Source of the DNA: a phage
Reading direction: 5' to 3' (one strand)
Length of the DNA: 57,756 bases
Sequence record: PV808483.1
The notes beneath the pieces were generated by a model. That model searched no databases. It was not told where the DNA came from and was given only the letters and a program-made list of their open reading frames with translations. Of the stretch, positions 34,002-56,071 are shown piece after piece. Position 1 is the first letter of the stretch, and each line of letters begins with the position of its first letter. A program made the translations under genes and the position numbers.

Positions 34002-36037
34002 ATCAATCCATAAATGGCATTGTGTATTACGACACCCCCAACAACAGAGGAAACATTGAAATTAATTTCAGCTTTGTAAGCTCCTGGTGGAACACAATCT
34101 ACCAAAGCATAAAAATTGAACGTGCCTCCTGCTGAGATGTTATATCCCATGGAGTCCGCGACAGCATTTCCTTGTTGGTCAAGGAACCTAAGTGACGCCA
34201 GGGTGGTTGTTGTATTTTTAGCCCAAAAACCAAGCTGAAAATAACGACCTGGCTCACAATCAATGATTGTTTGGGTGAAATTAGCTGCTGCGTCAGATGA
34301 TGGTACAGATAAAACAAAAGAAGTTGAAAACATTAAATCATTAGGAACATCGTTTGTTGTAGTAGCAGTGACAACTCCTGTTCCAGTTTGCGAGAGTGTC
34401 CAGTTAGATATGTTTAAAAACTGTCCTGAGCCATTACTGATGCTATTAATATAAGGGCTTACAATGCTCCCTAAATTCCAGTTACTTGTGATAAATCCTG
34501 CCCGTGGATAGCACCCTCTGGACATTACTTTTTTGCTCGCGCCACCTATCAACTGTCTTGTGGGAAATCCGGTAGCAATCGTTGTATTCCCATAGAGGGG
34601 TAACGAGCAATTATTTAGGCTAACAACCCCATCGCCGTTGCTAACAATAGGTACACTGGTATACCCGTCTGGGAGTAGTATCGTCGAATTACTGACGGTT
34701 AATCGTGAACTGCCATCCACAGTAAACCCAACGAAACTCTGACCAGGTTGGTACTCAATGTTACCGTTTGTGAAAACCACTGTTGCGTTATCTGATAACG
34801 CAACAGTAGGGTCAAAATATCCTGATTTTTTACCTGCCGGTAGAGAGCAGCTATCGAATATAAATTGACCATTAACAAACGTGAAAGGTCCACCGTTGTC
34901 AACCATCCAGCAGTGATTAAATTTTATAACCTCACCGGAATTCGCTGGTGAATTGAAAATAGCAGAATTTGTAAAACTTCTGGACAACGCGCATTTATCA
35001 AAAAGAATACGATATGCATTATCAAGAAACTCAATTCCGGCAGTTGAGATAAACCCACTATTAGATATTCTTAACTCTGATACTACACCACTGGTAGAGC
35101 CACCGATAGCCAATTTCCTGGAACCTTTTCCGACGAATGACACACCACTCATCAAAGCAGTTGCGTTAACTGCATCTCTGTTAATGTAATCCGCGCCTGT
35201 ATTAATAATGGTTAGGTAGTAGTCACCGGTTACAGATGCAGTTTCTGTTAAAGTACATTTATTTTTTCCAATAAGTGCGCCTTTTGCTATGTCGAAAATA
35301 ATCGGTGTTGTTATCTCACCAGAAACAGGAACCACACAGTCAAATCCGGCAGCGTTTATTTTGTTGATGAATACCGCCAAATCTTCGGTTCCAGTATAAC
35401 CAGCATCATACACGTCCACGGTGCCGTTGAAGAATTTTCTTTTCCATACCACACCGTTTCCGGGGAAGGTAACAATATTGTCTACAGTAGTAGTCGCGCT
35501 AACAGCTACCATAATACCACCACCAAAATTAAACCCGCTCACATACGAATCAAGAATTATGGAATCACCAATTGATCCTGATATCGATGATAACTCAGAA
35601 ACTGATGATACAGTCCCTATATAAGACAAACCATTTGATTTGTTTAAATCAGAACGTAACATTAAATCCGTCTGATTAACCCAGTGTGTAGCATCAATAC
35701 CACCCGTAGTTGCAGGTGTTGAACCAGGTGGAACAATTTTAGGCAACATACCCATCCACTGGTAATAATTACCTTCTGATTCATATAGTAGTGTTTCCCA
35801 ACGATGGTTAATAGTACTACCGCCTTCAAACGAACCGTCTGCAGGTTTAAAACCAACTGAACTAAAAAAACCGTCAAGTGTTTTGTTAGTAACTGATTCA
35901 CCACGGATAGTATCCGTTACTTTCAGTGCAGGGTTACCAGCAGCATCACGACTTTTTGTAACGTGTTCAATATGTAAAATCGCTTGTTTGCCTGTTTTCA
36001 AATCATCAGCACTGATATAATCGTTACAGTTAGCCAT
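33998..36037 (-). CDS. tail fibre or tailspike, receptor-binding protein candidate
   Basis: ORF 33998..36064 trimmed to the ATG at 36037 with GGAG upstream; Gly/Ser/Thr/Asn-rich repetitive sequence; reverse orientation. Confidence 0.55.
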   Translation of the reverse strand: MANCNDYISADDLKTGKQAILHIEHVTKSRDAAGNPALKVTDTIRGESVTNKTLDGFFSSVGFKPADGSFEGGSTINHRWETLLYESEGNYYQWMGMLPKIVPPGSTPATTGGIDATHWVNQTDLMLRSDLNKSNGLSYIGTVSSVSELSSISGSIGDSIILDSYVSGFNFGGGIMVAVSATTTVDNIVTFPGNGVVWKRKFFNGTVDVYDAGYTGTEDLAVFINKINAAGFDCVVPVSGEITTPIIFDIAKGALIGKNKCTLTETASVTGDYYLTIINTGADYINRDAVNATALMSGVSFVGKGSRKLAIGGSTSGVVSELRISNSGFISTAGIEFLDNAYRILFDKCALSRSFTNSAIFNSPANSGEVIKFNHCWMVDNGGPFTFVNGQFIFDSCSLPAGKKSGYFDPTVALSDNATVVFTNGNIEYQPGQSFVGFTVDGSSRLTVSNSTILLPDGYTSVPIVSNGDGVVSLNNCSLPLYGNTTIATGFPTRQLIGGASKKVMSRGCYPRAGFITSNWNLGSIVSPYINSISNGSGQFLNISNWTLSQTGTGVVTATTTNDVPNDLMFSTSFVLSVPSSDAAANFTQTIIDCEPGRYFQLGFWAKNTTTTLASLRFLDQQGNAVADSMGYNISAGGTFNFYALVDCVPPGAYKAEINFNVSSVVGGVVIHNAIYGLI

Positions 36038-37484: not shown

Positions 37485-37697
37485 ATCTTCAACCGACACC
37501 TCAACCCACGATGCGGGAACCGGATATTCAGTCCGGTACATGAACAAGGATGTTCCTATCAACCCGTGTGGATCTGTTTTAATCCCTCGCATGTTCAACA
37601 ATGGAAAAAACTGTTCGCGTGTTTGTGGCAATCTTGCAAAGCGTCCTGTCGGGCGTTTAGCAGGATCCATAGGGTTGAATTCAACGATTGTGGACAT
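37464..37697 (-). CDS. hypothetical protein
   Basis: 77-aa ORF, last gene of the reverse-strand early operon. Confidence 0.4.
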   Translation of the reverse strand: MSTIVEFNPMDPAKRPTGRFARLPQTREQFFPLLNMRGIKTDPHGLIGTSLFMYRTEYPVPASWVEVSVEDLLKTVY

Positions 37698-37703
37698 AGT
37701 GAG

Positions 37704-38144
37704 TTACTCCAGTGAATAGATTGTAATTTCGCAATCAATGTTGTTCAATTTTTCATAAATCAAAGGTCTGACTACTGACCATGATAAACCACCATTTGAA
37801 CAACCTAATCGTGGTAATGAAACTGAACGTATTTTAAAGTGTCTGATGACTTTTATAAGATCGTCCAAACCATATTCAATCCATTGTAATTGTGAAGGAT
37901 TACACCAATGCTCTTTAGTTGGAAAATTAATAATTATCTGATTGTTTTCAGATGTGACAAACATTTTTCCAACTTTTACATGGTGTTGTTCACACGCTTT
38001 TCGGTACTGTTTAAAATTGTCAGGAAAGGTTCTTTTAAACGCTAAAGCAATACCTTTACCCATTACACCAACGCAATTCACCGTGTTTACTAGAGCATGT
38101 GAATTGCTTTTAAGAAGGTCCCCCGTGACTTCTATTACTGACAT
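37704..38144 (-). CDS. macrodomain protein (DarG/TARG1-like ADP-ribose-processing fold)
   Basis: LVNTVNCVGVMGKGIALAFKRTFPDNF and PRLGCSNGGL motifs. Confidence 0.7.
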   Translation of the reverse strand: MSVIEVTGDLLKSNSHALVNTVNCVGVMGKGIALAFKRTFPDNFKQYRKACEQHHVKVGKMFVTSENNQIIINFPTKEHWCNPSQLQWIEYGLDDLIKVIRHFKIRSVSLPRLGCSNGGLSWSVVRPLIYEKLNNIDCEITIYSLE

Positions 38145-38646
38145 AACAATAACTCCTGTACGCTTGTCGTTTTATTTTCTGATAGTCGGAAACTTTTACA
38201 GATCTCGTTTTACATTCACCGATACGATATGGGTCGAAAACAAACATCACCTGTGAACGGTCATTTCCTCCTGCTGGTAACCTGGTGTCAGGATCTACAA
38301 ACGCTATACGACCTTTAAACACCCATAGTTCCGAACAATGTGTCAGTGCTTTGTGAAACCAGTCTGCAGACGTCATAGCGTTCACGAGTAATAACGAACC
38401 AGTTCCTTGATGAACAGTGGTTATTATTTTATTAACCCATGGAGACGGATCGCTGTATGGTGGATTACACCAGACGAACCCACCACCATTACTTTGAACA
38501 ATCGAATTCCAGTCTTTATTCAGACTATCAGTGATAAACAACGAACATTTAGCGTTAGAACCATCGGTACACACATCAAGAACAAGTGGGAATTCACGAG
38601 AAACGTTATCAATAAAATCCCACGGTGTTTCCCAGTTGTCTTTAGC
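38110..38646 (-). CDS. dam: DNA N6-adenine methyltransferase (phage Dam family)
   Basis: WETPWDFI N-terminus and VWCNPPYS catalytic motif; ORF 38110..38766 trimmed to the ATG at 38646. Confidence 0.75.
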   Translation of the reverse strand, partial: AKDNWETPWDFIDNVSREFPLVLDVCTDGSNAKCSLFITDSLNKDWNSIVQSNGGGFVWCNPPYSDPSPWVNKIITTVHQGTGSLLLVNAMTSADWFHKALTHCSELWVFKGRIAFVDPDTRLPAGGNDRSQVMFVFDPYRIGECKTRSVKVSDYQKIKRQAYRSYCYVSNRSHGGPS

Positions 38647-38998
38647 CATGTTCCGGTACGCTCTCCACGCTGTAATAAACGGGGATACCCAGACGTTCAG
38701 CTTCTGCAATTTCCGCAATAGTCCCGGACGAACGACGATAATCAGGAAGCACCAGAACAGCGTCACAGCGGCGCATAATTTCTAACGTGCCTGACAGGTA
38801 GTATTCAGGTTGTATATTGCGTAAACCTCCGTCAAAGTCCCACAATTCGGTGTTCTTGTGAGGGATAACAGGGAACCACCCCGGACGTTGTAAAGCAAGT
38901 CGTTTACCTGCCTGTTCAGCGCGTGACACGTTACGGGATGTTTTAAGCGCACAGTCAGCACGATAAGGCCCGGCAATGTAACAGAGTTTAATCATGGT
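38642..38998 (-). CDS. nucleoside 2-deoxyribosyltransferase-like protein
   Basis: CYIAGPYRA N-terminal motif and C-terminal DAVLVLPDYRRSSGTIAEIAEAERLGIPVY; ORF 38642..39085 trimmed to the ATG at 38998. Confidence 0.55.
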   Translation of the reverse strand, partial: TMIKLCYIAGPYRADCALKTSRNVSRAEQAGKRLALQRPGWFPVIPHKNTELWDFDGGLRNIQPEYYLSGTLEIMRRCDAVLVLPDYRRSSGTIAEIAEAERLGIPVYYSVESVPEHG

Positions 38999-39219
38999 TG
39001 TTTTCCTGCATCTGTATAATGAGCTATGATTTCTTCCAAACAATTTATTGTGAAGAGAAATTTTAAACCAACCCGACATTCCCAAATATGTTCTCTCAGA
39101 TCTCTTGGGTCGGTGTACCCTCCGACAATAATAAAATTTTTAATCTCTTGTTTATATTTATCGGGAACGAAGTTGAAAAAGTCACGTTTAGTCTTAATTT
39201 CCCGACTGAATCTAGTCAT
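38992..39219 (-). CDS. hypothetical protein
   Basis: 75-aa ORF. Confidence 0.4.
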   Translation of the reverse strand: MTRFSREIKTKRDFFNFVPDKYKQEIKNFIIVGGYTDPRDLREHIWECRVGLKFLFTINCLEEIIAHYTDAGKQP

Positions 39220-42603: not shown

Positions 42604-43749
42604 TTAAAGTGGACGTGCGCCAGTCGGCATCGTCACGGGTTTGTTAAAAACAGATTCTGCCAGTGTGCTGTGACCTTTACGTGGGTCACTGTCAGGTACT
42701 AAAACTGGCTGACCTTCTGGTTTTGTCGTACACATGTCAACAAGTGCCGGAGGCAGTGATTTTTCCAGTGTTGACAACGGTTTTAATTTACGTTCGTACA
42801 ATGTTTCAGGGTTTACACCAAACATGGGTGCAGCACCGATCAGTTTTCCTTCGTCCGTAAGCTGACGTCGGGTTTGCTTTGTTGCGAGTTTAAAACCCGG
42901 TAAAGCCTTACCCATGCGAACAAAATGTAACCCCTGAGTATGTAACGCTGTTTTTGCTTCAGAAGAACGCGTATACAGTTCTTCAAGAAGTGCCAGACGA
43001 CGCGCTACTTCTTCTGGCGTAAGTGATGCTGGTGCATCAAGAACAGTAGCCAATTCTAAAACCCTCTCATACATCGCCGGACACATACCACGCGCCGGAC
43101 AGTAATGACAATGACTACCAACATTTAACGGTGCGTCTGGTTTATGTGCTTCGTTAAACCCGTGTTTAAATCGTTCAGCCCAGTCCATCAATGTCACCCG
43201 GTTAAACTCCCATCGTCTTACAGGTCCGAGTGGGTGATAAGCCCGTGGCTGAACAATTGTGAACACAACACGCTTAACAGTATCAATACAACGTTGGTCC
43301 AGTGCGTAATAGACCCCCTGTGAATTATCAACTGCTTCAACTGCGACATGACCGTATTTATAATCCCATACGTAAAGCGTATCAGTATTAAAGTCATACC
43401 AGCGATAATCACAGGTTCCGTACTGACCGGGTAACAACCAGTCAATGTGAATGCGAACTTCTGAAAACAGCGGATCGAGTTTCGCACCAACTGAAAGAAC
43501 ATCTGCTATAAAGTCATCCGCGTAAATGTGCATGTCTTCAGTAACCTGAACACCGTTAGGAGCAAGACACGGCATTAATGGCGGTTTACCTTTAATCTTC
43601 TGTTCTAACACCCAGTGACCGGCTGTACCTTCTTCAGCACTGGGTGACGATGGTTCTACATAATCAATCCGCTGTGACAGTTGAACGCTACCCGGACAAG
43701 CTAACCAACGTTTTGATCCACTGGCACTAAAGGTAGCGTGACTGGTCAT
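42604..43749 (-). CDS. PD-(D/E)xK nuclease, DUF2800/Cas4-like
   Basis: N-terminus SASGSKRWLACPGS, DYKYG motif, C-terminal Cys cluster CHYCPARGMC. Confidence 0.65.
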   Translation of the reverse strand: MTSHATFSASGSKRWLACPGSVQLSQRIDYVEPSSPSAEEGTAGHWVLEQKIKGKPPLMPCLAPNGVQVTEDMHIYADDFIADVLSVGAKLDPLFSEVRIHIDWLLPGQYGTCDYRWYDFNTDTLYVWDYKYGHVAVEAVDNSQGVYYALDQRCIDTVKRVVFTIVQPRAYHPLGPVRRWEFNRVTLMDWAERFKHGFNEAHKPDAPLNVGSHCHYCPARGMCPAMYERVLELATVLDAPASLTPEEVARRLALLEELYTRSSEAKTALHTQGLHFVRMGKALPGFKLATKQTRRQLTDEGKLIGAAPMFGVNPETLYERKLKPLSTLEKSLPPALVDMCTTKPEGQPVLVPDSDPRKGHSTLAESVFNKPVTMPTGARPL

Positions 43750-44501
43750 CAGAATGCCCCACCCATTTGTTTAACAGACTCAGCCTGACCGACAATATTT
43801 TCAGCATCAGCAGGGGCAGCGTTAATACGTTCAATCAGTTCGATGATAGATTTCAGTTTCACCGGGTCATCAATCTGCATTACATTCTGAGTTTCATACA
43901 GCCCCATGATTCGCTGACTTAATGGCGCGGCACGGTCACCCGTAATTTGTCCAAACATCTGCATCAGTGCTGACTGAAGAACCTGGGTGTTATAAACTTT
44001 AGCCGGATCCGTGGTTACAGGTTGCTCGACAGGCACGACTGGTGCTGCTGGTGCTGCTGGTACAACTGGAGCTACCGGAGCGGCAGGAACCGCTGGAGCA
44101 GGATCAACAGGTGCTACATAACCTGGTGCAAGTTCTGCAGGTCCGGTATAACGCCCTGCTTCAACTGCTTCAGCGATAAGTTCACGTTTAACACCGTCAA
44201 CAAACGCTTCATCCAGTTTTTTCTTTTGACGCCACAGACCATCACCTTTGTTCAGGGATTTACTGTCAGTGTGGATACGCGGATCGTGACGCAAACCCCA
44301 TTTGTCGAACTCTTCAGTGCTGGTTTCGTTATCGTCAACATCTTCAGTTGGTGCAGATACAACAGGCAGTGATTCAGCAACGACAGAAACGATTTCTTCT
44401 GTCGTGATCCGTGAGACACTTTTACCAGCAATAGCATTTGCCAGATTGTTGATCGCAGTTTCCAGACCCGGAGCAGTTACAAGTAATTTAACTTCGAACA
44501 T
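43749..44501 (-). CDS. hypothetical protein with Pro/Ala/Val-rich linker
   Basis: 250 aa; first gene downstream of the tandem promoters. Confidence 0.45.
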   Translation of the reverse strand: MFEVKLLVTAPGLETAINNLANAIAGKSVSRITTEEIVSVVAESLPVVSAPTEDVDDNETSTEEFDKWGLRHDPRIHTDSKSLNKGDGLWRQKKKLDEAFVDGVKRELIAEAVEAGRYTGPAELAPGYVAPVDPAPAVPAAPVAPVVPAAPAAPVVPVEQPVTTDPAKVYNTQVLQSALMQMFGQITGDRAAPLSQRIMGLYETQNVMQIDDPVKLKSIIELIERINAAPADAENIVGQAESVKQMGGAF

Positions 44502-44676: not shown

Positions 44677-47355
44677 GTGAGTCAAGAACCACTTCGTTAT
44701 TATCAACTAGAAGCTATCAATAACGTGTGTCAGGCATGGTCAAGCGGTGCTGACGACGTGATTCTTGTGCTTCCCACTGGCTGTCATGCTAAAGACAGTG
44801 AAATTCTTATGTACAACGGTGATGTTATAAAAGTACAGGATGTTTTACCTGGTGATTTATTGATGGGTCGTGATTCATTACCACGAACCGTGTTAGCGTT
44901 AGCTCGTGGCAGAGAAGAAATGTTTGAAATCATCCCAGTCAAAGGGTCACCTTTCCGTGTAAATAAAAATCACATATTACATTTGATACATACTGAATCA
45001 AAAGAAGAAATAGACATTTCTGTAAGTGATTACTTACAGAAATCAAATTATTTCAAACATTGCCACAAGTTGCTTCGTACGGGGGTTGATTTCGAATATC
45101 GCGAACCACCGACTTTAGACCCGTGGTTTGCCGGGATTATGATCGGTGATGGTAGTTACAAATCAGGTACACCACGTCTGACAAATGCAGACTCAAGTAT
45201 TTTAGAAAAGGCTACTTTTTACGCAAACCTTTTTGGATGTGTCTGCAAAGATGTAAAAGGTAACAACTGTGTTACACGTTATTTCGGTTATCCCGGGTCA
45301 TCGCGTTCGGTTAGTAACCCGTTGAGCGATGCGATGAAATCTGATGGATTGTGGGGGAAAATCGCACATGAAAAATCAATACCTGATGTGTATAAAAAAG
45401 GAAGCAGAAACACACGTTTAAACGTTCTGGCAGGATTAATTGATAGCGACGGATATATTTCACATAAGGGCGTTGATTTTGTGTCCAAATCACAGCAGTT
45501 AGCCGCTGATTTAGTGTTCGTTGCAAGAAGCCTGGGGAAAGCCGCGTATTACAAAGCCTGTGTTAAATCATGTCAAACGGGTAATGCAAACATTTACTAC
45601 AGAGTGAGTATTAGTGGCGATTTAAGCGATGTACCATTCGTTAGAAAACATGGTGATTTAACGAGAAAGCAGAAGAAAAATCATTTAGTAACGGGCTTTT
45701 CTGTTCGGTCTGTTGGTGAAGATAATTTTTATGGTTTTATGGTTAACGGTGACAATCTTTATCTTACGTCAGACTTCATCATCCATCATAACAGTGGTAA
45801 AACACGTACTATGGCTGAACTACTAAAATCCGACGGTGTAAAAGTCATCCAGGCACACCGTAAAGAACTGGTTAGTCAAATCGCAATGGCTGTTGCTCGC
45901 CAGGGATTACCACACAGATTTATAGCGCAAAAAGATACTGTTAAGTTTGCAACTAATCAGCAGATGAAAACGCTTGGTTACAGTACCTATTCCCCCGGTG
46001 CTGACATCGTTATTACCAGTTCACAAACGTTAAGAACAAAACAGTACGAACGATGGTACAACGACGTGTCTCTTGTGTTTAGCGACGAAGCGCATCACCT
46101 GGTGCGTGGCACACAGTGGGGAGACTGCCGGGAAAAATTCCCTAACGCTAAAGGTCTGGGTGTTACAGCCACACCGATCCGTGCTGACGGTAAAGGCTTG
46201 GGTCGTCATGCGTCAGGTTACGCAGATCAGATGATCATCGGTCCATCAATGCGTGAGTTAATCAGTCAACAACATCTGGCTGATTATCGTCTGATTATGG
46301 CTGAAACAGACCTGGAATTAACCGCAGAAATGATTTCCCATACCACGGGTGATTACAAACCATCTGCGTTAAAAAAAGCGATGGAAGATTCAAACATTGT
46401 TGGTGATACCGTCAGTACGTGGAAAACATATGCAGATGGCTTACTCACTGTTGTTTTTACGTGTGATGTAGATTCTGCTGAAGCACTTGCAAAAGAATTT
46501 CGTGATGCTGGCATTCCTGCAGAGGCGATCAGCTCACGAAACAGCAATCAGGAACGAGCGGATATCCTGGAACGTTTTGAACGACGTAAGACGCTTGTAC
46601 TGTGTAACAACGATTTATTCGGTGAAGGATACGATTGCCCTGCGATGGAATGTGCTGTAATGGACCGTCCAACAGAATCTTACTCTTTGTTTGTACAACA
46701 AATGGGTCGTCCGTTGCGTTTCAAACCGGGTAAAAAAGCACTGATTATTGATAAAGTCGGTAATGTTCGTCGATTTCTGGCCCGTGGTTTTCCACTTCCA
46801 GATCAGCATTATAACTGGTCTTTAGATGACCGTGACCGTCGTTCATCTAACAGCAGTGGGAACAGTAACACAACATGCACAAACAAGGGTGATCCTGATA
46901 ACGGTATTCCACCGTGTCTGAAGCCTTATCCGTCTGGTCTGCCGTGCTGCCCATATTGTGGTCATGTTCCTGAAAAAGCCGAACGCTCAGGCCCGGATCG
47001 TGTAGAAGGTAATTTACGTGAACTGACACCTGAAGAACTGGAAGAATTACGCCGGGCAGTTGTGATAATCGACCGTGATCCTGTTGCGGTAAAAGAACAA
47101 ATGTTAAACGCGGGTGCACCCCCTGTTGCAGCTTACAGTGCAATGAAAAACATTCAGGCAATGAACGATGCACAGCGTAAATTACGTAGCATGATTACCA
47201 CATGGGCCGGTATTCAGCGTGATAAAGGTATACCCGTTGATGACGCTTACAAGATGTTTTACAGGGTGTTTGGTGTTGATGTACTTAGTGCTCAAGGGTT
47301 ACGTACTCGTGAAGCTAATGAACTCGCTGCAAGGGTTGCAAGTTCATTAATCTGA
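44677..47355 (+). CDS. SF2 (DEAH-type) helicase precursor interrupted by an intein
   Basis: Extein motifs YYQLEA, LPTG|SGKT (Walker A split by the intein), FSDEAHH; C-terminal Cys cluster CLKPYPSGLPCCPYCGH. Confidence 0.75.
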   Translation: MSQEPLRYYQLEAINNVCQAWSSGADDVILVLPTGCHAKDSEILMYNGDVIKVQDVLPGDLLMGRDSLPRTVLALARGREEMFEIIPVKGSPFRVNKNHILHLIHTESKEEIDISVSDYLQKSNYFKHCHKLLRTGVDFEYREPPTLDPWFAGIMIGDGSYKSGTPRLTNADSSILEKATFYANLFGCVCKDVKGNNCVTRYFGYPGSSRSVSNPLSDAMKSDGLWGKIAHEKSIPDVYKKGSRNTRLNVLAGLIDSDGYISHKGVDFVSKSQQLAADLVFVARSLGKAAYYKACVKSCQTGNANIYYRVSISGDLSDVPFVRKHGDLTRKQKKNHLVTGFSVRSVGEDNFYGFMVNGDNLYLTSDFIIHHNSGKTRTMAELLKSDGVKVIQAHRKELVSQIAMAVARQGLPHRFIAQKDTVKFATNQQMKTLGYSTYSPGADIVITSSQTLRTKQYERWYNDVSLVFSDEAHHLVRGTQWGDCREKFPNAKGLGVTATPIRADGKGLGRHASGYADQMIIGPSMRELISQQHLADYRLIMAETDLELTAEMISHTTGDYKPSALKKAMEDSNIVGDTVSTWKTYADGLLTVVFTCDVDSAEALAKEFRDAGIPAEAISSRNSNQERADILERFERRKTLVLCNNDLFGEGYDCPAMECAVMDRPTESYSLFVQQMGRPLRFKPGKKALIIDKVGNVRRFLARGFPLPDQHYNWSLDDRDRRSSNSSGNSNTTCTNKGDPDNGIPPCLKPYPSGLPCCPYCGHVPEKAERSGPDRVEGNLRELTPEELEELRRAVVIIDRDPVAVKEQMLNAGAPPVAAYSAMKNIQAMNDAQRKLRSMITTWAGIQRDKGIPVDDAYKMFYRVFGVDVLSAQGLRTREANELAARVASSLI
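44782..45792 (+). mobile_element. intein (337 aa) with LAGLIDADG homing endonuclease domain, inserted in the helicase P-loop
   Basis: Begins CHAKDSEIL right after LPTG, contains LAGLIDSDGYIS, ends IIHHN followed by extein SGKT. Confidence 0.8.
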
Positions 47356-47396: not shown

Positions 47397-47888
47397 ATGA
47401 CAACGCTTGAACAATGGGCGATTCGTCACGGTGTTAGTCAGATGGCGTTGTACGAGTTATACGCTCTTTATCAGCCTGACGGAACACCACACGAAGATGG
47501 TGTAAGTGAAAGCGCCACCAGTAAAGAGTGTGAACTGATTGCTGCCCGTGCTGGTCAGCGTATCTGGCGTAATAACTCAGGTGCTCTGAAAAACGAAAAA
47601 GGAATGATGGTTCGTTATGGTCTTGGTAACACCAGTGCGAAAATCAACGCTGTTATGAAGTCAAGCGACTACATCGGCATTAAAACCAAAATCGTTACAC
47701 CGGATATGATCGGTTCGAAAGTGGGCGTCTTTATTGCTGCCGAAATGAAACGCCCTGACTGGCACATGATCCCCAGTGATAAACGTGCACAAGCACAGGC
47801 CACTTTCGGTGCGATTGTTGAAAACGCAGGTGGTGAATTTCGTTTCATCACTCACCCTTCACAATTTGAAAAATGGATTAAACAATGA
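47397..47888 (+). CDS. VRR-NUC domain nuclease
   Basis: RNNSGAL ... SDYIG ... EMK pattern. Confidence 0.65.
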   Translation: MTTLEQWAIRHGVSQMALYELYALYQPDGTPHEDGVSESATSKECELIAARAGQRIWRNNSGALKNEKGMMVRYGLGNTSAKINAVMKSSDYIGIKTKIVTPDMIGSKVGVFIAAEMKRPDWHMIPSDKRAQAQATFGAIVENAGGEFRFITHPSQFEKWIKQ

Positions 47889-48160
47889 ATAAAAAATCTT
47901 TAATCGCAACAATTGTAAGTCCTGAATACAAACAAAAACGTGAATCAATAACGTCTGAAATTGTTTCTGAATTTGATGACGTTAAAAAAACAAACCAACG
48001 CGTATCACGTCTGCAAAAACTGATTGATAACCACGGTATTGAAGCTGTTGCTAAACGTCTGAACGTTACTGAAATTCATGTTAAACGTAATCTGCTTACC
48101 GGGCGATCTGCTATCAACCTGGTCAAACTGATGGCTGCTGAACGTCAGTTCGGAGCGTAA
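47885..48160 (+). CDS. hypothetical protein, possible DNA-binding
   Basis: 91-aa ORF overlapping the upstream stop. Confidence 0.4.
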   Translation: MNKKSLIATIVSPEYKQKRESITSEIVSEFDDVKKTNQRVSRLQKLIDNHGIEAVAKRLNVTEIHVKRNLLTGRSAINLVKLMAAERQFGA

Positions 48161-48163: not shown

Positions 48164-50518
48164 ATGAAAGGGTTACTGAACCGTAAACAGTGGGTCATGT
48201 GGCGGCTTGAGACAGTCGCCGATCGTCCAAAACCAACGAAAGTACCATACAGCCCGGTACACGGTTATAAAGCCAGTACCACTAACCCTAATGACTGGTC
48301 TGACTATCACACCGCGTTAGGTATGGCGCAAATGTACGGCATGTCTGGTGTTGGTTTTGTATTCACAGAAAACGACCCTTATTTCTTTATTGATGTCGAT
48401 AACTGTCTGGTAGATCAGGCAACAGCTACGTGGTCACCACTAGCGCATGAATTCGTAAACCGTTTTCCAAATGCTTACACTGAAGTCAGTCAGTCAGGAA
48501 CAGGTTTGCACATCATCTGTGCTTATACCAGCATACCGGAAGGTTTTAACAGTCTGAACGACCAGAAAACCGGGCTGGAAATGTATTGGCGTGATCGTTT
48601 CGTCGCGATGACGCTCACGGGTAATGGTGATGTTGATATTGATTATACCCAGGGTATTCATGATTCTATTGCCCGGTATGGTCGCATCCGTTCAGACCGT
48701 TCCGCACGCTGGACAACAGCACCCTGTGATGACTGGTCAGGCCCGGCAGACGATGATGAACTGATTAAAATGGCGTTAAATTCGTCCAGTGCTGCTTCAG
48801 TATTTGGTAATAAAGCGTCGTTTGCGGATCTGTGGAATGCAAACGTTGAACGCCTGTCTGTGTCATATCCCAGCGACCAGGGAAAAGACTACAATGCATC
48901 TGCCGCTGATGCTGCTCTGTGCTCACACCTTGCTTTCTGGACCGGGAAAGATTGCGAACGTATTGAACGTCTATTTAACCGTTCCGGACTGGTTCGTGGT
49001 AAATGGACAGATCGTCAGGATTACCGTGAAAACACGATTCTTGGCGCTGTGGAACGTTGTGATACTGTGTATCGTAGTCAACCGACAATGACACCAGAAC
49101 TGATGAAAGCAGTCACACCAGCGCCTACCGTCGTTCCTAATGGTGGAACACCTGCGTATATGAGTGTGAAACCCGGTGAAGGTGCATATGGTTCAAACCA
49201 CACGGTTAACGCATCCACTTTCGTTAATAACTATTATCCGAACAACACATTGATTTTCGTCCAGCAACAGCCGTACCGGTTCAACGGTCGCGTGTGGGAA
49301 CGTGTCAGTGAAGATGAACTGAAACATCAAATTTCTATGGCAATGCTTGCCAGCGAACCAAAAGCTGACGTGATTAATGGTACGTACAAGGTTTTGTCGT
49401 ATTTATTCACACGCGCTGATCGTGAGCTTGGAACATGGCCCGGTGTTGATGTATCACACTATATTGTTTGTCAGAACGGGATACTGGATGTACACACGGG
49501 TAAATGTGATGCACATAACCCGGACTTCTTTACAACCAGTATTTTACCGTATAGCTATGATCCGTTTGCCCGTGCACCAGCGTTTGAACAGTTTCTTAAT
49601 ACAACTCTGGAAGGTGATCAGGAACGTATTGCATTGTTGCAGGAATGGCTGGGTTACATGCTTGTCAACTCGTATGACTATCAGAAAGCGATGTTGTTGA
49701 TTGGTGCACCACGTTCCGGTAAAGGCACGATTGGTCGCATCATTCAGGCACTGGTAGGTGATGAAGCGTACGCAGGGATCACACTGGAGGGTTTAGCTAG
49801 TGATGCGGTACTTGAAACTGTGCTGGATAAATCTGTGCTGTTTATCGGTGATGCTCACAGTGTGTCCGGGCCTGATCGCAACCGAATTCTGGACCGTTTC
49901 AAATCTATTACAGGTTGTGATGCGATTCCGGTTAATCGTAAGTATAAAGGTGCATGGAACGGTCGTTTACCTGGACGTATGACACTGGCTGCTAACAACA
50001 TCCCGGCATTTGCTGATGATTCCGGTGCAATGGCTAACCGTTTGCTGATCCTACCGTTCAACATTTCGTTCCTGGGTCGTGAAGATACTACTCTGGAAGC
50101 ACGACTGATGAAAGAACTACCGGGGATCTGTAACTGGGCGATTGAAGGTTTACAACGGTTACGTGCAAACGGACGGTTTACTGAACCAAAAGCAAGTCTG
50201 GAAGAACGTCAGGAAATTATGGATCAACAATCACCACTTAGAAGTTTTATCAGAGATTGTTGCGAATTGGTATCTGATGGTGAGGTGCACACTGAAGAAC
50301 TCTATGGTCGTTATCGTCTCTGGAAAACACAGGAAGGTGGTCCAGCAATGACTAAAACTGCATTTAGTCGGGCGTTTAAATCCACCCTTCGTGGTAAAGT
50401 GAAAAAAGACGTTGTTAATATAAATAACGTACGATTAAACGGTTTCAGGGGTATTCGTCTTCTCCCTTTTCAGTCAACAGCTAATGTAGTGCCTTTCCCA
50501 CCAGTGAGTAATGGTTAG
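48164..50518 (+). CDS. primase/helicase: AEP primase-polymerase N-terminus, PriCT-like region, SF3 helicase C-terminus
   Basis: FIDVDNC and SQSGTGLHI (AEP motifs); LLIGAPRSGKGT Walker A in the C-terminal half. Confidence 0.7.
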   Translation: MKGLLNRKQWVMWRLETVADRPKPTKVPYSPVHGYKASTTNPNDWSDYHTALGMAQMYGMSGVGFVFTENDPYFFIDVDNCLVDQATATWSPLAHEFVNRFPNAYTEVSQSGTGLHIICAYTSIPEGFNSLNDQKTGLEMYWRDRFVAMTLTGNGDVDIDYTQGIHDSIARYGRIRSDRSARWTTAPCDDWSGPADDDELIKMALNSSSAASVFGNKASFADLWNANVERLSVSYPSDQGKDYNASAADAALCSHLAFWTGKDCERIERLFNRSGLVRGKWTDRQDYRENTILGAVERCDTVYRSQPTMTPELMKAVTPAPTVVPNGGTPAYMSVKPGEGAYGSNHTVNASTFVNNYYPNNTLIFVQQQPYRFNGRVWERVSEDELKHQISMAMLASEPKADVINGTYKVLSYLFTRADRELGTWPGVDVSHYIVCQNGILDVHTGKCDAHNPDFFTTSILPYSYDPFARAPAFEQFLNTTLEGDQERIALLQEWLGYMLVNSYDYQKAMLLIGAPRSGKGTIGRIIQALVGDEAYAGITLEGLASDAVLETVLDKSVLFIGDAHSVSGPDRNRILDRFKSITGCDAIPVNRKYKGAWNGRLPGRMTLAANNIPAFADDSGAMANRLLILPFNISFLGREDTTLEARLMKELPGICNWAIEGLQRLRANGRFTEPKASLEERQEIMDQQSPLRSFIRDCCELVSDGEVHTEELYGRYRLWKTQEGGPAMTKTAFSRAFKSTLRGKVKKDVVNINNVRLNGFRGIRLLPFQSTANVVPFPPVSNG

Positions 50519-52368: not shown

Positions 52369-53136
52369 ATGGCTAACATTAACTCCCTTCGCAAACTGTC
52401 TGATACCGATAAAACCAACGTAAAACGTGGTAATGCGTATCGTATTGATCCGCGTATTATCAAGATTCGTCCAGGACATAACCCACGCGGTGTGTTTACC
52501 GACAACTACTGGGAAACTGAAGCAGCACTGGCACACATTGAAAACTTTCGTCAGGCTTATACTAACGGCGATTTCGTTCCACCCATCGTGGTACAGGTTG
52601 TTGACGGTGTTCCGTATGTCCAGGATGGTGAGCATCGTTTACGTGGTGTATTGGCAGCTATTGACGCCGGGACGCCGATTCTGACAGTAGACGTTGTTGA
52701 ATCGTCCGGTGACGAACTACAACAGACCCTGACACTGTTAAAAGGTAATGAAGGTAAACCGTGGTCCCCTGTTGAACGTGCTGTTATTTACGGTCGTTTC
52801 CGTTCATATGGCATGAGTGTTGAGCAGATCGCTACACAGGTCGGTAAAACCGTTCAGCACGTTTACGAACAACTGAATATTCTTGATATGCCGCTGGAAC
52901 TTAAACGTCGTATTCAGAACGGCGAAATCAGCGCGTCAGCAGCCATTCGCCAGTTTAAAGCAGGTGATAAAGAACCAGTAGTAACGCGTCGTCCGCCTGC
53001 TAAACTGGTACGGTCTGCAGTGGAAGCAATCCGTGGTGAATGGTCTGTAACCCGTTCGGAAGGTGGTAAAGTCCTGGTTGAACTTACCGCTGAACAGTTT
53101 GAAGCGTTAAAAGCACTGAAGGAGCACCAGTTATGA
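52369..53136 (+). CDS. ParB-like nuclease domain protein
   Basis: VQDGEHRLRG motif in an N-terminal ParB/Srx-like region. Confidence 0.55.
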   Translation: MANINSLRKLSDTDKTNVKRGNAYRIDPRIIKIRPGHNPRGVFTDNYWETEAALAHIENFRQAYTNGDFVPPIVVQVVDGVPYVQDGEHRLRGVLAAIDAGTPILTVDVVESSGDELQQTLTLLKGNEGKPWSPVERAVIYGRFRSYGMSVEQIATQVGKTVQHVYEQLNILDMPLELKRRIQNGEISASAAIRQFKAGDKEPVVTRRPPAKLVRSAVEAIRGEWSVTRSEGGKVLVELTAEQFEALKALKEHQL

Positions 53137-53324
53137 AAAACCGTAAAGCAAAGATTCTGTTAGTTCGTAGAAACGCTCCTGGCGTCTGGCAGTGGGTGAG
53201 ACTCAGCAACCGACGGATGGGGTTGATGAAATATTACGGGATGATGGATTGCAGTTTTTGCAAAAAAACCCAGCGCGGCGCAAAACCGCTGGAAAAACCA
53301 CTTTCGCATTAAAGGAGAGTGATA

Positions 53325-53521
53325 TGGCAACCAACAATCGTAAAGCCAAGATGCTTATTTCCCGTGTATACAGCCGTTGCTATCCCAGCCAGTGGTTGAG
53401 AGTTAGCAATCGCCGTATGGTGTTGTACTTATATTCTGGAATTGCCAGAGATGGAATCAAAGATAAGCGTAGCGCGGCGCAAAACCGCTGGAAAAACCAC
53501 TTGCGTACTAAAGGAGAGTGA
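53325..53521 (+). CDS. hypothetical small basic protein
   Basis: 65 aa; shares a ~60-bp leader and initiation region with the next gene. Confidence 0.4.
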
Positions 53522-53522
53522 T

Positions 53523-53786
53523 ATGGCAACTTTAACAAAAAAAGAACGGGCATGGTTGAATGAATTACAGGACGTTCTTGATCGCTGCCCATCACCGAAA
53601 AAAATTGGTTTTTACACCATTGGCGATAAAAGCATTTACCTGTATGACCTACGCCGCATGGATGAAATCATGGAGGCTCTTGATAATCGTTCGTCGGTGG
53701 ATTGGTGTGTTGCTGTCCATGATATGAATGCCGGATTTGATGAAAAGATTTTGTTCCCCTCATCAGTTGAAAGCACTGCGGGTTAA
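53523..53786 (+). CDS. hypothetical small protein
   Basis: 88 aa; duplicated leader upstream. Confidence 0.45.
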   Translation: MATLTKKERAWLNELQDVLDRCPSPKKIGFYTIGDKSIYLYDLRRMDEIMEALDNRSSVDWCVAVHDMNAGFDEKILFPSSVESTAG

Positions 53787-53796
53787 GGAGTAACAC

Positions 53797-54465
53797 ATGA
53801 CCACTATTACCAAAGAGCGACTGCTGACAATCAGGCAATGGCGCGAAACATACGGACCTGGTAGCAATGTTGTACTGCCAGCAGAAGAAGCGGAAGAACT
53901 GGCACGAATTGCTCTGGCATCGCTGGAAGCAGAACCAGTTGCTTATATTTTCAAACATCCGGCCGGGAAATTATTCTGGGCTTTAACGGATGAAAGCAAT
54001 AAAGAGCAACCGGACGTTATTCCTGTTTATGCTGACTCACCTGCGCCGGTTGTGCCGGATGAAATAGACGTAAACGATGTACCAAGGGCGGTGACATATT
54101 TCAAGACACACAGAGATTGTTACGCAGATGGCTGGAACGCCTGCCGCGCCGCCATGCTTCAGTCCGGAAACTTTCGGGAAAACAAGAATTCGTCAACCAA
54201 TAATTTTCGGGAAATCGCGGAAACGTCAACCAACTATCCGGTAATTCCTAGTGAGGTGTTGTCCGCAATCCTGAAGGTTGCCAAGATTCGTGCCGATTTC
54301 GATGATTTTGACGGTGACAGGCGAGGTATCGGTGATTGTCTGGATGAGGCTGAGCAAGAGCTTATCGTTACCATTAACAAATATGCCAGTCAGTTAGCAG
54401 CAGAACCGATAGCGACTAATGAAAATCGTTGGGTTGCCAAACTAACCGGGAGTAAAAAGAAATGA
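53797..54465 (+). CDS. hypothetical protein
   Basis: 222-aa ORF with AGGAG upstream. Confidence 0.5.
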   Translation: MTTITKERLLTIRQWRETYGPGSNVVLPAEEAEELARIALASLEAEPVAYIFKHPAGKLFWALTDESNKEQPDVIPVYADSPAPVVPDEIDVNDVPRAVTYFKTHRDCYADGWNACRAAMLQSGNFRENKNSSTNNFREIAETSTNYPVIPSEVLSAILKVAKIRADFDDFDGDRRGIGDCLDEAEQELIVTINKYASQLAAEPIATNENRWVAKLTGSKKK

Positions 54466-54632
54466 CTAAAATCTACATTACAAAATATGCATTAACAACT
54501 GGTGTTTTCAGTGTAGATGCTAAAATAAAATCAGATGGTACAAGTGCAACTTTCTACGACAAAAGAAACATACGACAGTTTGTTTATGGTAAAGATTTTT
54601 GGTTGACACCGGAAGAGGCTTTTATTGATTGA
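54462..54632 (+). CDS. hypothetical small protein (56 aa)
   Basis: ATGA overlap with the upstream stop; below the ORF-track cutoff. Confidence 0.3.
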   Translation: MTKIYITKYALTTGVFSVDAKIKSDGTSATFYDKRNIRQFVYGKDFWLTPEEAFID

Positions 54633-54721
54633 GAGCGTCGTCGAATAAACAAATTAAAATCTCTGGAGAAACAGAAACAAAAAATCGAAAGTTTAAACTT
54701 TCAAATTATTAAGGAACATTT

Positions 54722-54946
54722 ATGACTATCCGACTGATGAATCCAACCGTTGCCCGTGATATTAAACCGGGTGACAAGATTGAAGTATTTAACGAATGGT
54801 ACTGGGTACGTTATATCAATTACCACGGGGCAACACTTACGCTTCGCTTACAACCGGAAGATGAACCGCTATCACCATTTTTCGAAAACGACCGCGTTGT
54901 GGTGACAGTACCAGAAGATCTAATGATTGATGTCGAGGTGCGTTAA
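54722..54946 (+). CDS. hypothetical small protein
   Basis: 74-aa ORF. Confidence 0.4.
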   Translation: MTIRLMNPTVARDIKPGDKIEVFNEWYWVRYINYHGATLTLRLQPEDEPLSPFFENDRVVVTVPEDLMIDVEVR

Positions 54947-55270
54947 ATGACTGTATATGAAATGGAAGGTTTTCTTCGTGGTAAATGTGTTCCGGGTGAT
55001 CTGAAAGTTAACGAAACAAACGCTGAATATCTTGTCCGTAAGTTCGGTGAACTTGAAAATAAATGTGCGGCGCTGGCTGAGGAGAATGTTCGACTTAAGT
55101 CAGGTATAGCTGGCCTGATACATCTCGGTATTCGATACGCAGATGTTGATGTAATGAAAATTGCTGGAGATGCACAGCTTTCTACCCCATGCACTGATGA
55201 CATCATAAACAGCATTATCCAAAAAGAAACCAGTGATAAACGTGCACAAGCACAAAATGTTCCCTCGTAA
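54947..55270 (+). CDS. hypothetical protein
   Basis: 107-aa ORF. Confidence 0.4.
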   Translation: MTVYEMEGFLRGKCVPGDLKVNETNAEYLVRKFGELENKCAALAEENVRLKSGIAGLIHLGIRYADVDVMKIAGDAQLSTPCTDDIINSIIQKETSDKRAQAQNVPS

Positions 55271-55499
55271 CGGTTTGAAGTGGTCCGCACGAGATCTGGC
55301 GTTATTAAAAATTAATGCAGGAAAGATCAGTGCGGATGAAATAGCGTATTACCTTCGCCGGGACGTTGAAGCGGTACACATTAAAGCGTCACGTCTCGGT
55401 ATATCACTGGTAACCAATAAATGTAAACGTGGTCATGCGCGAGTTTACAAAAAAGGTAGATGGCGCTGTCCTGAGTGTAGAAAATTAAAAGGGTATTAA
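55257..55499 (+). CDS. small zinc-ribbon protein, possible regulator
   Basis: C-terminal CKRGH...CPECRK; ORF 55233..55499 with start placed at the ATG at 55257 overlapping the upstream stop. Confidence 0.4.
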   Translation: MFPRNGLKWSARDLALLKINAGKISADEIAYYLRRDVEAVHIKASRLGISLVTNKCKRGHARVYKKGRWRCPECRKLKGY

Positions 55500-55501
55500 A
55501 T

Positions 55502-56071
55502 ATGACACCTGAACAATTCGCAACAGCAGCACACGGTGATCAACTTCGTAAGTATACCAACGACCCATATGTGAACCACTGCCGGAACGTTGCTGAACTG
55601 GTTAAACGCTATGGTGGTACGCCGGATATGGTTACCGCTGCCTGGCTGCATGACGTCGTTGAAGATACGCCCGTGACCGTGGGTGATGTGTGTTCGCAGT
55701 TCGGTGAGACTGTGGCACGTTATGTTGATCAGCTTACTGATGTGAGTCGTCCACACCACGGCAACCGTGTTAAGCGTAAAGCACGGGACATCGACCATTT
55801 ATCACGGGCTGAACCTGTGGTGAAAACTATAAAACTGTGTGATCTGCTGGATAACACATCTTCAATTGACCGACACGATCCGAAGTTTGCTGTAACATAC
55901 CTGGCTGAAAAACAACTCATGCTTGCTCACCTGTCAGACGCCAGTAATCAGGAGTTATACGCGCTTGTTGAGCGTGAATTGTTTAAAGCCAAATACAAAC
56001 TAACGAACGTCCAGTTAACCGCGTTTGACAAACACTACGACGCACTGGTTAAAGCGATGGGGGAGTTGTGA
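55502..56071 (+). CDS. HD-domain phosphohydrolase resembling a small alarmone ((p)ppGpp) hydrolase
   Basis: AAHGDQLRKYTNDPYVNHCRNVAELV and AAWLHDVVEDT match the RelA/SpoT hydrolase-domain signature as I recall it. Confidence 0.65.
   Translation: MTPEQFATAAHGDQLRKYTNDPYVNHCRNVAELVKRYGGTPDMVTAAWLHDVVEDTPVTVGDVCSQFGETVARYVDQLTDVSRPHHGNRVKRKARDIDHLSRAEPVVKTIKLCDLLDNTSSIDRHDPKFAVTYLAEKQLMLAHLSDASNQELYALVERELFKAKYKLTNVQLTAFDKHYDALVKAMGEL

Follow-up and report, generated by a model that had tools for sequence, protein, structure and literature searches.

The helicase gene described here lies in a 57,756-nt stretch of phage DNA (the window) that is colinear with the genome of Escherichia phage vB_EcoS_PJ16. 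It occupies an unbroken open reading frame that starts with GTG and has GAAGGT ahead of the start (Table 1). Inserted in frame in its Walker A motif are 1011 nt, exactly 337 codons, with the junctions ...VILVLPTG / CHAKDSEILMYNG...LTSDFIIHHN / SGKTRTMAELL (slashes mark insertion points throughout). The first-pass annotation had read this region as LPTG, a 337-residue insert with Cys first and His-Asn last, and then SGKT, and translation reproduces that reading exactly. The insert has a GC content of 39.1%, compared with 45.7–47.6% for the flanking exteins.

Table 1. Features of the intein-containing helicase gene and sequences of its insertion site in different alleles (window coordinates)
Feature	Coordinates	Strand	Sequence or residues	Basis
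Precursor gene, intein-containing SF2 helicase (RadD-like, DEAH)	44677..47355	+	892 aa	ORF list; Pfam
N-extein, ending in first half of Walker A / helicase motif I	44677..44781	+	35 aa, last residues LVLPTG
Last 6 nt of N-extein	44776..44781	+	ACTGGC	allele comparison
Intein, Hint splicing domain split by LAGLIDADG homing-endonuclease domain	44782..45792	+	337 aa	Pfam, PI-SceI match, model
Splicing block A	44782..44820	+	CHAKDSEILMYNG, residues 1-13
Cys1 codon, N-terminal nucleophile	44782..44784	+	TGT
Splicing block B	44962..44985	+	NKNHILHL, residues 61-68
First, more degenerate LAGLIDADG motif	45124..45159	+	WFAGIMIGDGSY, residues 115-126
Segment containing K198	45367..45384	+	HEKSIP
Second LAGLIDADG motif	45427..45462	+	LAGLIDSDGYIS, residues 216-227
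Splicing blocks F and G	45724..45792	+	NFYGFMVNGDNLYLTSDFIIHHN, residues 315-337
C-extein, first residue Ser+1 of SGKT	45793..47355	+	520 aa
Ser+1 codon	45793..45795	+	AGT
3' extein tract foreign to Sashavirus backbone	45793..45831	+	SGKTRTMAELLKS, 39 nt	allele comparison
Motif II, C-extein	46084..46095	+	DEAH
Motif III, C-extein	46165..46176	+	TATP
Motif VI, C-extein	46696..46719	+	QQMGRPLR
Cys cluster, C-extein	46945..46965	+	CCPYCGH
Cognate spliced site, intein removed			CTTGTGCTTCCCACTGGC/AGTGGTAAAACACGTACTATG
Intein-free site, as synthetic target			CTTCCCACTGGC/AGTGGTAAAACACGT
L016-type site			...CCTACGGGG/AGTGGTAAAACGCGAACTATG
Bas82/Sergei site			...CCCACGGGG/GCAGGAAAAACGTTCTGTATG

Outside the insert, the frame encodes an SF2 helicase. 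Specifically, a profile search of the whole frame places Pfam ResIII and Helicase_C in the exteins, and motifs I (LPTG/SGKT), II, III and VI occur in that order. Residues 6–364 of the predicted spliced product align in a single stretch with residues 5–364 of Escherichia coli RadD, whose structure (6jde) is matched with an E value of 1.6e-15, and RadD is also the best NCBIfam match of the exteins, at 78 bits against a cut-off of 720. On sequence criteria, then, the host helicase is RadD-like in fold and motifs but, with the equivalog cut-off missed, not a RadD orthologue. The deposited PJ16 record labels this gene (PJ16_077) a 'type 1 site specific restriction modification protein'. The corresponding NCBIfam scores are 20.7 bits for HsdR (cut-off 284.55) and 37.7 bits for the EcoAI R subunit (cut-off 550); both matches are confined to the helicase part of the frame and reflect the SF2 ATPase fold held in common. 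The annotated surroundings are replication genes, and directly upstream lie a DUF2800/PD-(D/E)XK exonuclease and an Enc34/Gp2.5-like single-stranded DNA-binding protein. The helicase belongs to the replication and recombination module of the phage, and PJ16_077 should be relabelled as an intein-interrupted replication helicase rather than a restriction-modification protein. The label matters because PJ16 has been proposed as a therapy against multidrug-resistant E. coli in poultry.

With respect to the insert itself, Pfam Hom_end_hint matches above its curated cut-off (E 3e-14), and splicing blocks A, B, F and G can all be located. The residues on which splicing would depend are in place. Cys1 is unchanged in 33 of 33 related inteins and is paired with Ser+1 at the far junction, the block B histidine (H64) is invariant in the alignment we term A1, and the C terminus carries the His-Asn pair, with H336 present in 25 of the 33-intein set and N337 invariant in A1 (32 of 33 in the larger set). 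By sequence, the insert is a canonical class-1 intein within which a PI-SceI-type LAGLIDADG endonuclease is nested, and its splicing is predicted; a tblastn search found no second intein-like sequence in the window. Block B has N61 in place of the usual Thr (Asn in 31 of 33 relatives), and block F has a glycine, G318, that is invariant in the relatives and recurs in the YYGITL of PI-SceI. These departures from the textbook Thr and Asp are family-wide and are also found in PI-SceI, which splices.

A single chain carries both LAGLIDADG motifs of the nested domain, each with an acidic catalytic residue at its end, and the domain matches Pfam LAGLIDADG_3 (E 3e-9) and Hom_end (E 2e-6) above their curated cut-offs. 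In the first motif, D123 (WFAGIMIGD123G) aligns with D218 of PI-SceI and is Asp in 28 of the 31 relatives that have a residue there; in the second, D223 (LAGLIDSD223G) aligns with PI-SceI D326 and is Asp in 29 of 31. K198 aligns with the Lys of PI-SceI VKNIP, which we take to be active-site K301, and is Lys in all 29 relatives with a residue at that position. All three residues, together with both LAGLIDADG helices, are intact, without frameshift or deletion. An AlphaFold model of the intein (pLDDT 89.8, pTM 0.89) displays a pseudo-dimeric alpha-beta-beta-alpha-beta-beta-alpha fold, with elements H114-122, E124-135, H138-150 and E154-169 followed by H209-223, E225-235, H238-250 and E254-278. 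The best Foldseek match of this model is DNA-bound PI-SceI (1lwt_A, E 7e-22, TM 0.83), ahead of archaeal VMA inteins, PI-PfuI, Prp8 mini-inteins (Hint part) and I-DmoI (endonuclease part). The LAGLIDADG sequence and intein-like terminal blocks that the first-pass annotation had recognized are thus upheld by profiles, fold and catalytic residues, as well as by sequence similarity to PI-SceI, and its intein reading of the insert is supported.

PI-SceI, the Saccharomyces cerevisiae VMA1 intein (PDB 1vde, 1lws, 1lwt and 1dfa; precursor 9cop), is the best solved relative by sequence, with an E value of 1.1e-17 in the PDB and a range of 1e-17 to 2e-20. Both proteins are Hint domains broken by a two-motif LAGLIDADG endonuclease, have in common Cys1, the His of block B, the Gly of block F and a His-Asn ending, and can be clearly aligned over the first ~55 residues and the block LAGLIDSDGY, although identity across the structural alignment is only ~20%. 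PI-SceI is the larger of the two (454 versus 337 aa), and most of the 117 residues missing from the PJ16 intein belong to the Hint domain's DNA-recognition insert, so that target recognition may differ between them. The PI-SceI host is a V-ATPase with Cys at +1, whereas the PJ16 intein has Ser+1 and interrupts a phage SF2 helicase. We also considered the VMA1 intein as an analogue of the P-loop site (GxxGCGKT) and dropped the idea, as the 9cop alignment gives IIYVG/C...HN/CGERGNEM; VMA1 is split at IIYVG/CGERGNEM, outside the P-loop, and the PJ16 intein sits within it.

The same helicase was found without the 1011 nt in 11 records of sequenced relatives (Sergei, Solent, Sasha in two records, PDP46, Bas82, AVIO78A, 536P12, BDX09P1, SP-062 and SP069) and in 10 IMG/VR contigs. 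Alignment of the extein to these 21 alleles, as the first-pass annotation had proposed, confirms the insertion point, since the gap falls in every one exactly between the Gly and the next Walker A residue. The element is thus an in-frame insert in a conserved protein, and its excision restores the motif. This distribution bears directly on whether the 337 residues might be a native accessory domain, kept for good in a nuclease-helicase fusion and never excised. GenBank treats the entire frame as one restriction-modification protein, and the weak HsdR and EcoAI matches could be taken in the same sense, but those scores are far below their cut-offs and confined to the helicase part. A domain of this size between the Gly and Ser of GxGKT would disrupt the P-loop, and the first residue is Cys, the last two are His-Asn and the next is Ser, in a segment with Hint and intein-endonuclease family matches and a PI-SceI-like fold. 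Homologues carrying the 337 residues as a native domain, which the first-pass annotation had named as a finding that would overturn its reading, were not seen among the 21 relatives, and we regard a permanent domain as highly improbable.

An equally improbable explanation is that the insert arose as an artefact of assembly or sequence construction, for instance through a chimeric contig or filling-in from a reference, and is absent from the real phage genome. The suspicion arises from the relation of the window to the PJ16 record: the two are of equal length and differ by 1389 substitutions (2.4%) and 0 indels. The intein block (44755..45860) is 100% identical, as are all blocks that relatives lack or cover patchily, and the rest of the helicase gene differs at 72 sites. 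It is therefore possible that the window is an altered form of PJ16 or a composite. Nonetheless, the insert does not depend on the window, being part of the deposited PJ16 genome as well, and its length is a multiple of three, in frame, with canonical intein junctions at a site of a known type. Moreover, a divergent full-length relative occupies the same site in another viral contig (L029, an IMG/VR helicase, discussed below), which misassembly would not produce. We rejected the identical intein block as a sign of very recent homing, since other blocks without counterparts in relatives are equally identical and indels are absent; the pattern has to do with the relation between the window and the PJ16 record rather than with the biology of the intein. 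The PJ16-type intein is represented by a single natural sequence, that of PJ16 and the window being one and the same here.

Immediately 3' of the intein, a 39-nt tract is 57–64% identical to the L013, L014, Sergei and Bas82 alleles, and the following 156 nt are 99–100% identical; the same tract is 82% identical to the more distant L016 allele. Relative to the closest intein-free alleles, the intein-bearing allele differs at 14–15 of these 39 positions, among them an Ala to Ser change at +1. We interpret the segment as a 3' co-conversion tract that would have brought in the Ser+1 codon, as fits invasion. On the 5' side, the last 6 nt of the N-extein are identical at only 4 of 6 positions to every intein-free allele (ACGGGG or ACGGGT), the changes being synonymous, and may be a short 5' co-conversion tract. 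The sharp edges of the foreign flank, together with the lower GC content of the intein, suggest that the element came in through gene conversion and is not an ancient resident. These comparisons qualify the earlier statement that removal of the insert restores a canonical P-loop. In the PJ16-type allele it does, giving LPTGSGKT; intein-free relatives, however, read LPTG-AGKT or MPTG-SGKT, the closest of them PTG-AGKT, and the Ser and ~39 nt appear to have come with the intein. The case raises the question of whether an intein can enter an allele that has no +1 nucleophile by carrying the codon along.

Our favored explanation, to which we assign a probability of about 0.86, is that a class-1, PI-SceI-related intein resides at LPTG/SGKT; splicing is predicted to restore the helicase, and the endonuclease to home. 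Translation would yield a precursor of ~100 kDa that should be inactive, its ATP-binding loop being physically interrupted. Class-1 splicing proceeds by an N-S acyl shift, a branched intermediate, Asn cyclization and an O-N shift. In the PJ16 protein, Cys1 would undergo the N-S acyl shift, Ser+1 would attack the resulting thioester to form the branched intermediate, Asn337 cyclization assisted by His336 would release the intein, and the O-N shift would leave a Gly-Ser peptide bond. The predicted products are a 555-residue helicase of ~62 kDa, in which the LPTGSGKT loop is intact, and the excised 337-residue intein of ~38 kDa. All relatives retain the helicase, and PJ16 entered the database as a phage isolate, which argues that a functional helicase is made. 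Once released, or still within the precursor, the intein is expected to act as a site-specific endonuclease through D123 and D223, which end the two LAGLIDADG helices. In a mixed infection, its target would be the P-loop-coding sequence of helicase alleles without an intein, and repair of the cut by recombination would transfer the intein, along with a little of the adjoining extein, to the broken allele.

A less favorable reading of the endonuclease is that it is dead, leaving a splicing-competent fossil inherited vertically in the PJ16 lineage and no longer homing. Consistent with this, the intein is carried by one phage (PJ16) among ~22 related helicase genes, and neither a donor nor a second carrier above 48% identity was found in phage GenBank, IMG/VR, metagenome contigs, GTDB genomes or 5,426 E. 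coli genomes; the best match was 43% among 5.8 billion protein clusters and 44% in phage GenBank. With a nearest intein only 48% identical, the invasion need not be recent. The mismatches 3' of the site mean that the closest intein-free alleles may not be substrates, and the reduced DNA-recognition insert points the same way. Against a fossil stand the intact catalytic residues and LAGLIDADG helices, the confidently modelled endonuclease domain, and the sharply bounded foreign flank and low intein GC noted above, which suggest gene conversion. True mini-inteins of the family (P0042 and P0052, 142–147 aa), by comparison, have lost the entire endonuclease domain. We consider a dead endonuclease unlikely, and retain the homing intein as the preferred reading. 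For work on intein homing and co-conversion in tractable E. coli phages, PJ16 can be cleanly paired with natural intein-free phages such as the BASEL phage Bas82, whose helicase gene is ~96–97% identical.

Relatives 39–48% identical to the PJ16 intein, several of them annotated as inteins, occupy the P-loops of other phage helicases, DnaB and AAA ATPases. In terms of position, the G/SGKT site lies three residues upstream of GK/T, where most related phage-helicase inteins sit and which is the 'classic' P-loop insertion position (Kelley et al. 2016, PMC5050341). Inteins at GK/T include those of Klebsiella phage JD001, Vibrio phage 393E50-1, Escherichia phage Bas95 ('similar to intein'), and Jerseyvirus fmb-p1 and St162 (both 'putative intein-containing helicase'). 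They are of one family with the PJ16 intein (39–45% identity over the full length, 332–347 aa, same endonuclease type) and share its kind of host gene, its motif and its neighborhood, with a DUF2800 exonuclease upstream and primase downstream. They differ in lying between Lys and Thr (GxGK/T, Thr+1) and in ending with TVTHN, where the PJ16 intein has Ser+1 and ends with IIHHN.

The G/[STC]GK position is shared with inteins in L029 (CPTG/TGKS), P0001 (VMPTG/SGKTP) and L010 (YAPTG/SGKSV), and in the AAA ATPases P0003, P0042 and P0052 (xGxPG/[SC]GK[ST]). The L029 intein is the closest outside PJ16, with 48% identity and 62% positives over the full length, and terminal blocks CHAKG... and ...LTSDFIIHHN are common to the inteins at this position and that of PJ16. 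P0042 and P0052 are 50–55% identical to the PJ16 intein over the splicing domain, although as mini-inteins they lack the endonuclease. Their hosts, by contrast, are either distant helicases (L029, 39% over 41 aa) or unrelated AAA ATPases. A neighbour-joining tree grouped the inteins at this site (site a), and we do not claim the clade, as bootstrap values were 62% for the window and AAA inteins, 41% with P0001 added and 27% with L010 also included.

Tentatively, the PJ16 intein could be an active homing element of a distinct G/SGK P-loop lineage that moves among SF2 helicases and AAA+ ATPases and enters PTG-AGKT alleles, a possibility we view with some doubt. Such an element would recognize P-loop-coding DNA, and ~40 nt of co-converted extein would install the Ser it needs. 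If so, it would serve PJ16 in mixed infections as a marker-exclusion weapon against other phages of the Sashavirus type, and it would provide a PI-SceI-like nuclease and splicing module that is new and, at 337 aa, compact.

Inteins in P-loops are well documented, among them DnaB-b, MCM-a, RFC-a and TerL1-a/b (Novikova et al. 2016, PMC4760082; Kelley et al. 2016, PMC5050341), as is their transfer between P-loops of unrelated proteins (Gallot-Lavallee et al. 2023, PMC10710043). We found no paper in the literature on an intein in Sashavirus, PJ16 or Salmonella-phage helicases. The PJ16 element is an ordinary, hitherto unannotated case of this well-known kind of mobile element and leaves intein theory as now understood unchanged. 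Like P-loop inteins generally, it splits the ATP-binding loop of a replication ATPase and has kin in the P-loops of non-homologous proteins, with no difference of principle. What it adds is a RadD-like helicase host of the Sashavirus/Nonanavirus type, a less-used position and a further case of related inteins at two positions three residues apart in one P-loop.

The helicase gene is a single unbroken reading frame of 892 codons, with a GTG start preceded by GAAGGT, in which ...DDVILVLPTG is followed by 337 residues running from CHAKDSEILMYNG to LTSDFIIHHN, and then by SGKTRTMAELL.... A degenerate first LAGLIDADG motif (WFAGIMIGDGSY) occupies intein residues 115-126, and the second (LAGLIDSDGYIS) residues 216-227. 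Translation reproduced the insert coordinates, length, end residues and LAGLIDADG motif of the first-pass annotation, and its reading, a LAGLIDADG intein splitting the helicase Walker A motif, is borne out by Pfam matches, similarity to PI-SceI, a structural model and insert-free alleles. The intein has a GC content of 39.1%; the exteins have 45.7-47.6% and the window as a whole 43.5%.

With respect to identity, three Pfam families match within the insert over their curated cut-offs (Hom_end_hint, E 3e-14; LAGLIDADG_3, E 3e-9; Hom_end, E 2e-6), and ResIII and Helicase_C fall outside it. The top solved relative by sequence is PI-SceI, the yeast VMA1 intein (E 1.1e-17), whose endonuclease active-site residues D218, K301 and D326 aligned to D123, K198 and D223 of the insert. 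C1, G29, H64, G318 and N337 were invariant when the insert was aligned with 25 relatives from the databases, and N61, D123, K198, D223 and H336 were kept in a large majority of 33 excised inteins. Two positions depart from the textbook motifs throughout the family: block B has Asn where Thr is usual, and block F has Gly where Asp is usual. PI-SceI, which splices, has the block F Gly too (YYGITL). The window intein is 117 residues shorter than PI-SceI, and most of the shortfall is in the Hint-domain DNA-recognition insert. An AlphaFold model built on the 25-relative alignment was confident (pLDDT 89.8, pTM 0.89), and its top Foldseek match was DNA-bound PI-SceI (1lwt_A, E 7e-22, TM 0.83), followed by archaeal VMA inteins and PI-PfuI, and then by Prp8 mini-inteins, which match the splicing part, and I-DmoI, which matches the endonuclease part. 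On the strength of the domain matches, PI-SceI alignment, conserved residues and model, the insert is a class-1 intein with a nested two-motif LAGLIDADG homing endonuclease, an overall identification to which we assign a probability of about 0.86.

Escherichia phage vB_EcoS_PJ16 (OQ955832.1), whose PJ16_077 is this ORF, is colinear with the window, and 11 other records match extein parts only, over a span ~1 kb shorter than the window's (Sergei, Solent, two records of Sasha, PDP46, Bas82, AVIO78A, 536P12, BDX09P1, SP-062 and SP069). The helicase gene of Sergei and Bas82 is 1662 nt long and reads LPTG-AGKTFCMSELVKTRDG, with the alignment gap exactly at the predicted junction. Ten IMG/VR contigs also encode the helicase without the insert: L013 at 97% amino acid identity (PTG-AGKTRALAELVKSDG), the Sergei-like L014 and L015, L016-L021 at 82-84% (MPTG-SGKTRTMAELVK) and L022 at 74% (PTG-AGKTRCMAEL). 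These alleles confirm the insertion point, and since all of these records and contigs lack the 337 residues, a native domain that is never excised is extremely improbable. The spliced product (residues 6-364) gave one continuous alignment with E. coli RadD (5-364; E 1.6e-15), with the motifs DEAH, TATP and QQMGRPLR ordered as expected. It scored 78 bits against a RadD family cut-off of 720, and far beneath the type I restriction family cut-offs; the helicase is RadD-like, and not a RadD orthologue.

With its ATP-binding loop parted by 337 residues, the precursor should be inactive. Splicing by the standard class-1 route would proceed through a Cys1 thioester, attack by Ser+1 (the first C-extein residue), His336-assisted cyclisation of Asn337 and an O-N shift, yielding a 555-residue helicase with LPTGSGKT and the free intein. 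Such splicing is very likely, because PJ16 is an isolated phage and every relative conserves the helicase. The intein should also cleave intein-free alleles of co-infecting phages, and repair would copy it in. Endonuclease activity is less certain than the intein identification itself; an intein with a dead endonuclease, an inactive fossil, is a rather unlikely sub-case, and the residues aligned to the PI-SceI triad are among those mostly kept.

Compared with its nearest intein-free counterparts (L013, L014, Sergei and Bas82), the helicase gene shows sharp swings in identity along its length, from 90-100% over the 39 nt before the last two N-extein codons to 4/6 over the last 6 nt of the N-extein and 57-64% over the first 39 nt of the C-extein, and back to 99-100% over the next 156 nt. 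The foreign 39-nt tract changes the +1 Ala to Ser and AGKT(F/R)... to SGKTRTMAELLKS, and is 82% identical to L016, the rest of whose gene is just ~77% identical. As the simplest reading of this clear signature we infer co-conversion, the flanking extein having been copied along with the intein. The intein may have entered when a double-strand break was repaired from a donor helicase whose P-loop region resembled that of L016, and it would have carried its own +1 nucleophile. The intein-free L016-L021 helicases already have the +1 Ser and an SGKTRTMAEL tract; they are the leading candidates for natural target sites left uncut by the endonuclease, or for the source lineage of the flank.

Related inteins were found by tblastn in 728 phage records, with PJ16 alone exceeding 60% identity. 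The next-best phage inteins (39-44%) interrupt helicases from Klebsiella phage JD001, Vibrio phages, Bas95 (labelled 'similar to intein') and Jerseyviruses ('putative intein-containing helicase'); mycobacteriophage records with related inteins number 257. Unlike the window's, the inteins of JD001, Vibrio 393E50-1, Bas95 and fmb-p1 interrupt GxGK|T (Thr+1), three residues downstream; Lys|Thr is the 'classic' P-loop insertion (Kelley et al. 2016, PMC5050341). Among 5.8 billion protein clusters there were 59 matches (best 43%), whose parsed junctions use both positions: G|[S/T/C]GK[S/T] in SF2 helicases (P0001, P0043, P0054), AAA ATPases (P0003, P0042, P0052, whose inteins have ...LTSDFIIHHN in common) and a GKPG|TGKS group, and GxGK|[T/S] in other helicases and DnaB. 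The window intein site is the less common of these two known positions, and a neighbour-joining tree placed the intein among others at that site, with weak bootstrap values (27-62%).

The closest known relative outside PJ16 is a full-length, 48% identical intein in contig L029, where a distantly related helicase is split as CPTG|TGKS, at the same G|xGK site. That the insert is an assembly artefact is as improbable as a native domain. L029 surfaced only when a degenerate DNA pattern spelling the junction at the intein C-terminus (DFIIHHN-x-GK) was searched; the peptide-pattern locus search and the 5.8-billion-protein search did not recover it, and metagenome contigs, GTDB genomes and E. coli genomes gave nothing closer. 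P0042 and P0052 (AAA domain PF00004) contain mini-inteins (142-147 aa) that lack an endonuclease domain and sit at xGxxG|[S/C]GK; these are 50-55% identical to the window intein splicing domain, with an identical C-terminal block, and related elements therefore occur in unrelated P-loop proteins. Earlier work has described such spread, as well as the enrichment of inteins among ATPases of replication (PMC4760082, PMC5050341, PMC10710043); the element is a previously unannotated example of a well-known class, the P-loop inteins of phage replication ATPases. In the Jerseyvirus Salmonella phage fmb-p1 (MZ274225.1), three further ORFs neighbouring the helicase are labelled 'putative intein containing helicase', 'intein-containing DNA polymerase precursor' and 'putative helicase', which may be annotation carry-over.

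Coordinates of the intein, its surroundings and compared regions
Feature	Coordinates	Strand	Remarks
PJ16_076	43749-44501	-	label 'helicase'; 250 aa, no Pfam match, Pro/Ala/Val-rich repeat (PAPAVPAAPVAPVVPAAPAAPVVP)
PJ16_077	44677-47355	+	label 'type 1 site specific restriction modification protein'; intein-containing helicase
Intein	44782-45792	+	337 aa
Putative co-conversion tract	45793-45831	+	first 39 nt of C-extein
Helicase-primase interval	47397-48160	+	two small ORFs, 163 and 91 aa
PJ16_080	48164-50518	+	label 'DNA helicase'; primase-polymerase/D5-like domains (NrS-1 HBD, D5_N, DUF5906)
Same interval, Sergei and Bas82 (L002, L003)	4696-5860 in each		three ORFs: 168-aa 'exonuclease', 163 aa, 57 aa
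Intein in L029 (IMGVR_UViG_3300020045_001486)	~760-1815
Blocks 100% identical to PJ16 (examples)	1027-3430, 16457-17596, 26549-28761, 33975-35872, 37635-39214, 44755-45860, 52396-56352, 56378-57756

The window and PJ16 are equal in length (57756), with 0 indels and 1389 substitutions (2.4%). These concentrate in conserved regions, in which the window stands at roughly the same distance from PJ16 as from Solent or Sergei. Blocks missing or piecemeal in relatives, among them the intein with its foreign flank, are identical in the window and PJ16; the intein block and 52396-56352, at least, are of this kind. Divergence outside the identical blocks is ~3%, mostly Sasha-like phage alleles, and 65 of the 72 differences in the helicase gene are alleles present in relatives. 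The window looks like a PJ16 backbone with relatives' SNPs, whether a reference-guided consensus, a recombinant or an altered sequence. Given this pattern, identity of the intein block was dropped as a sign of recent transfer, other blocks that relatives lack being identical to PJ16 too.

Minus-strand genes upstream of the helicase include one for a DNA polymerase (the record's label; no Pfam match), one for an Enc34/Gp2.5-like ssDNA-binding protein and one for a DUF2800/PD-(D/E)XK exonuclease. Downstream, beyond two small ORFs, is the primase-polymerase/D5-like protein. These neighbours place the helicase in a replication/recombination module, and the phage encodes recombination functions of the kind that homing would need. 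The three PJ16 product names in the table look wrong. The small ORFs between helicase and primase differ from those of Sergei and Bas82, so gene content beside the intein-bearing gene varies among these phages too.
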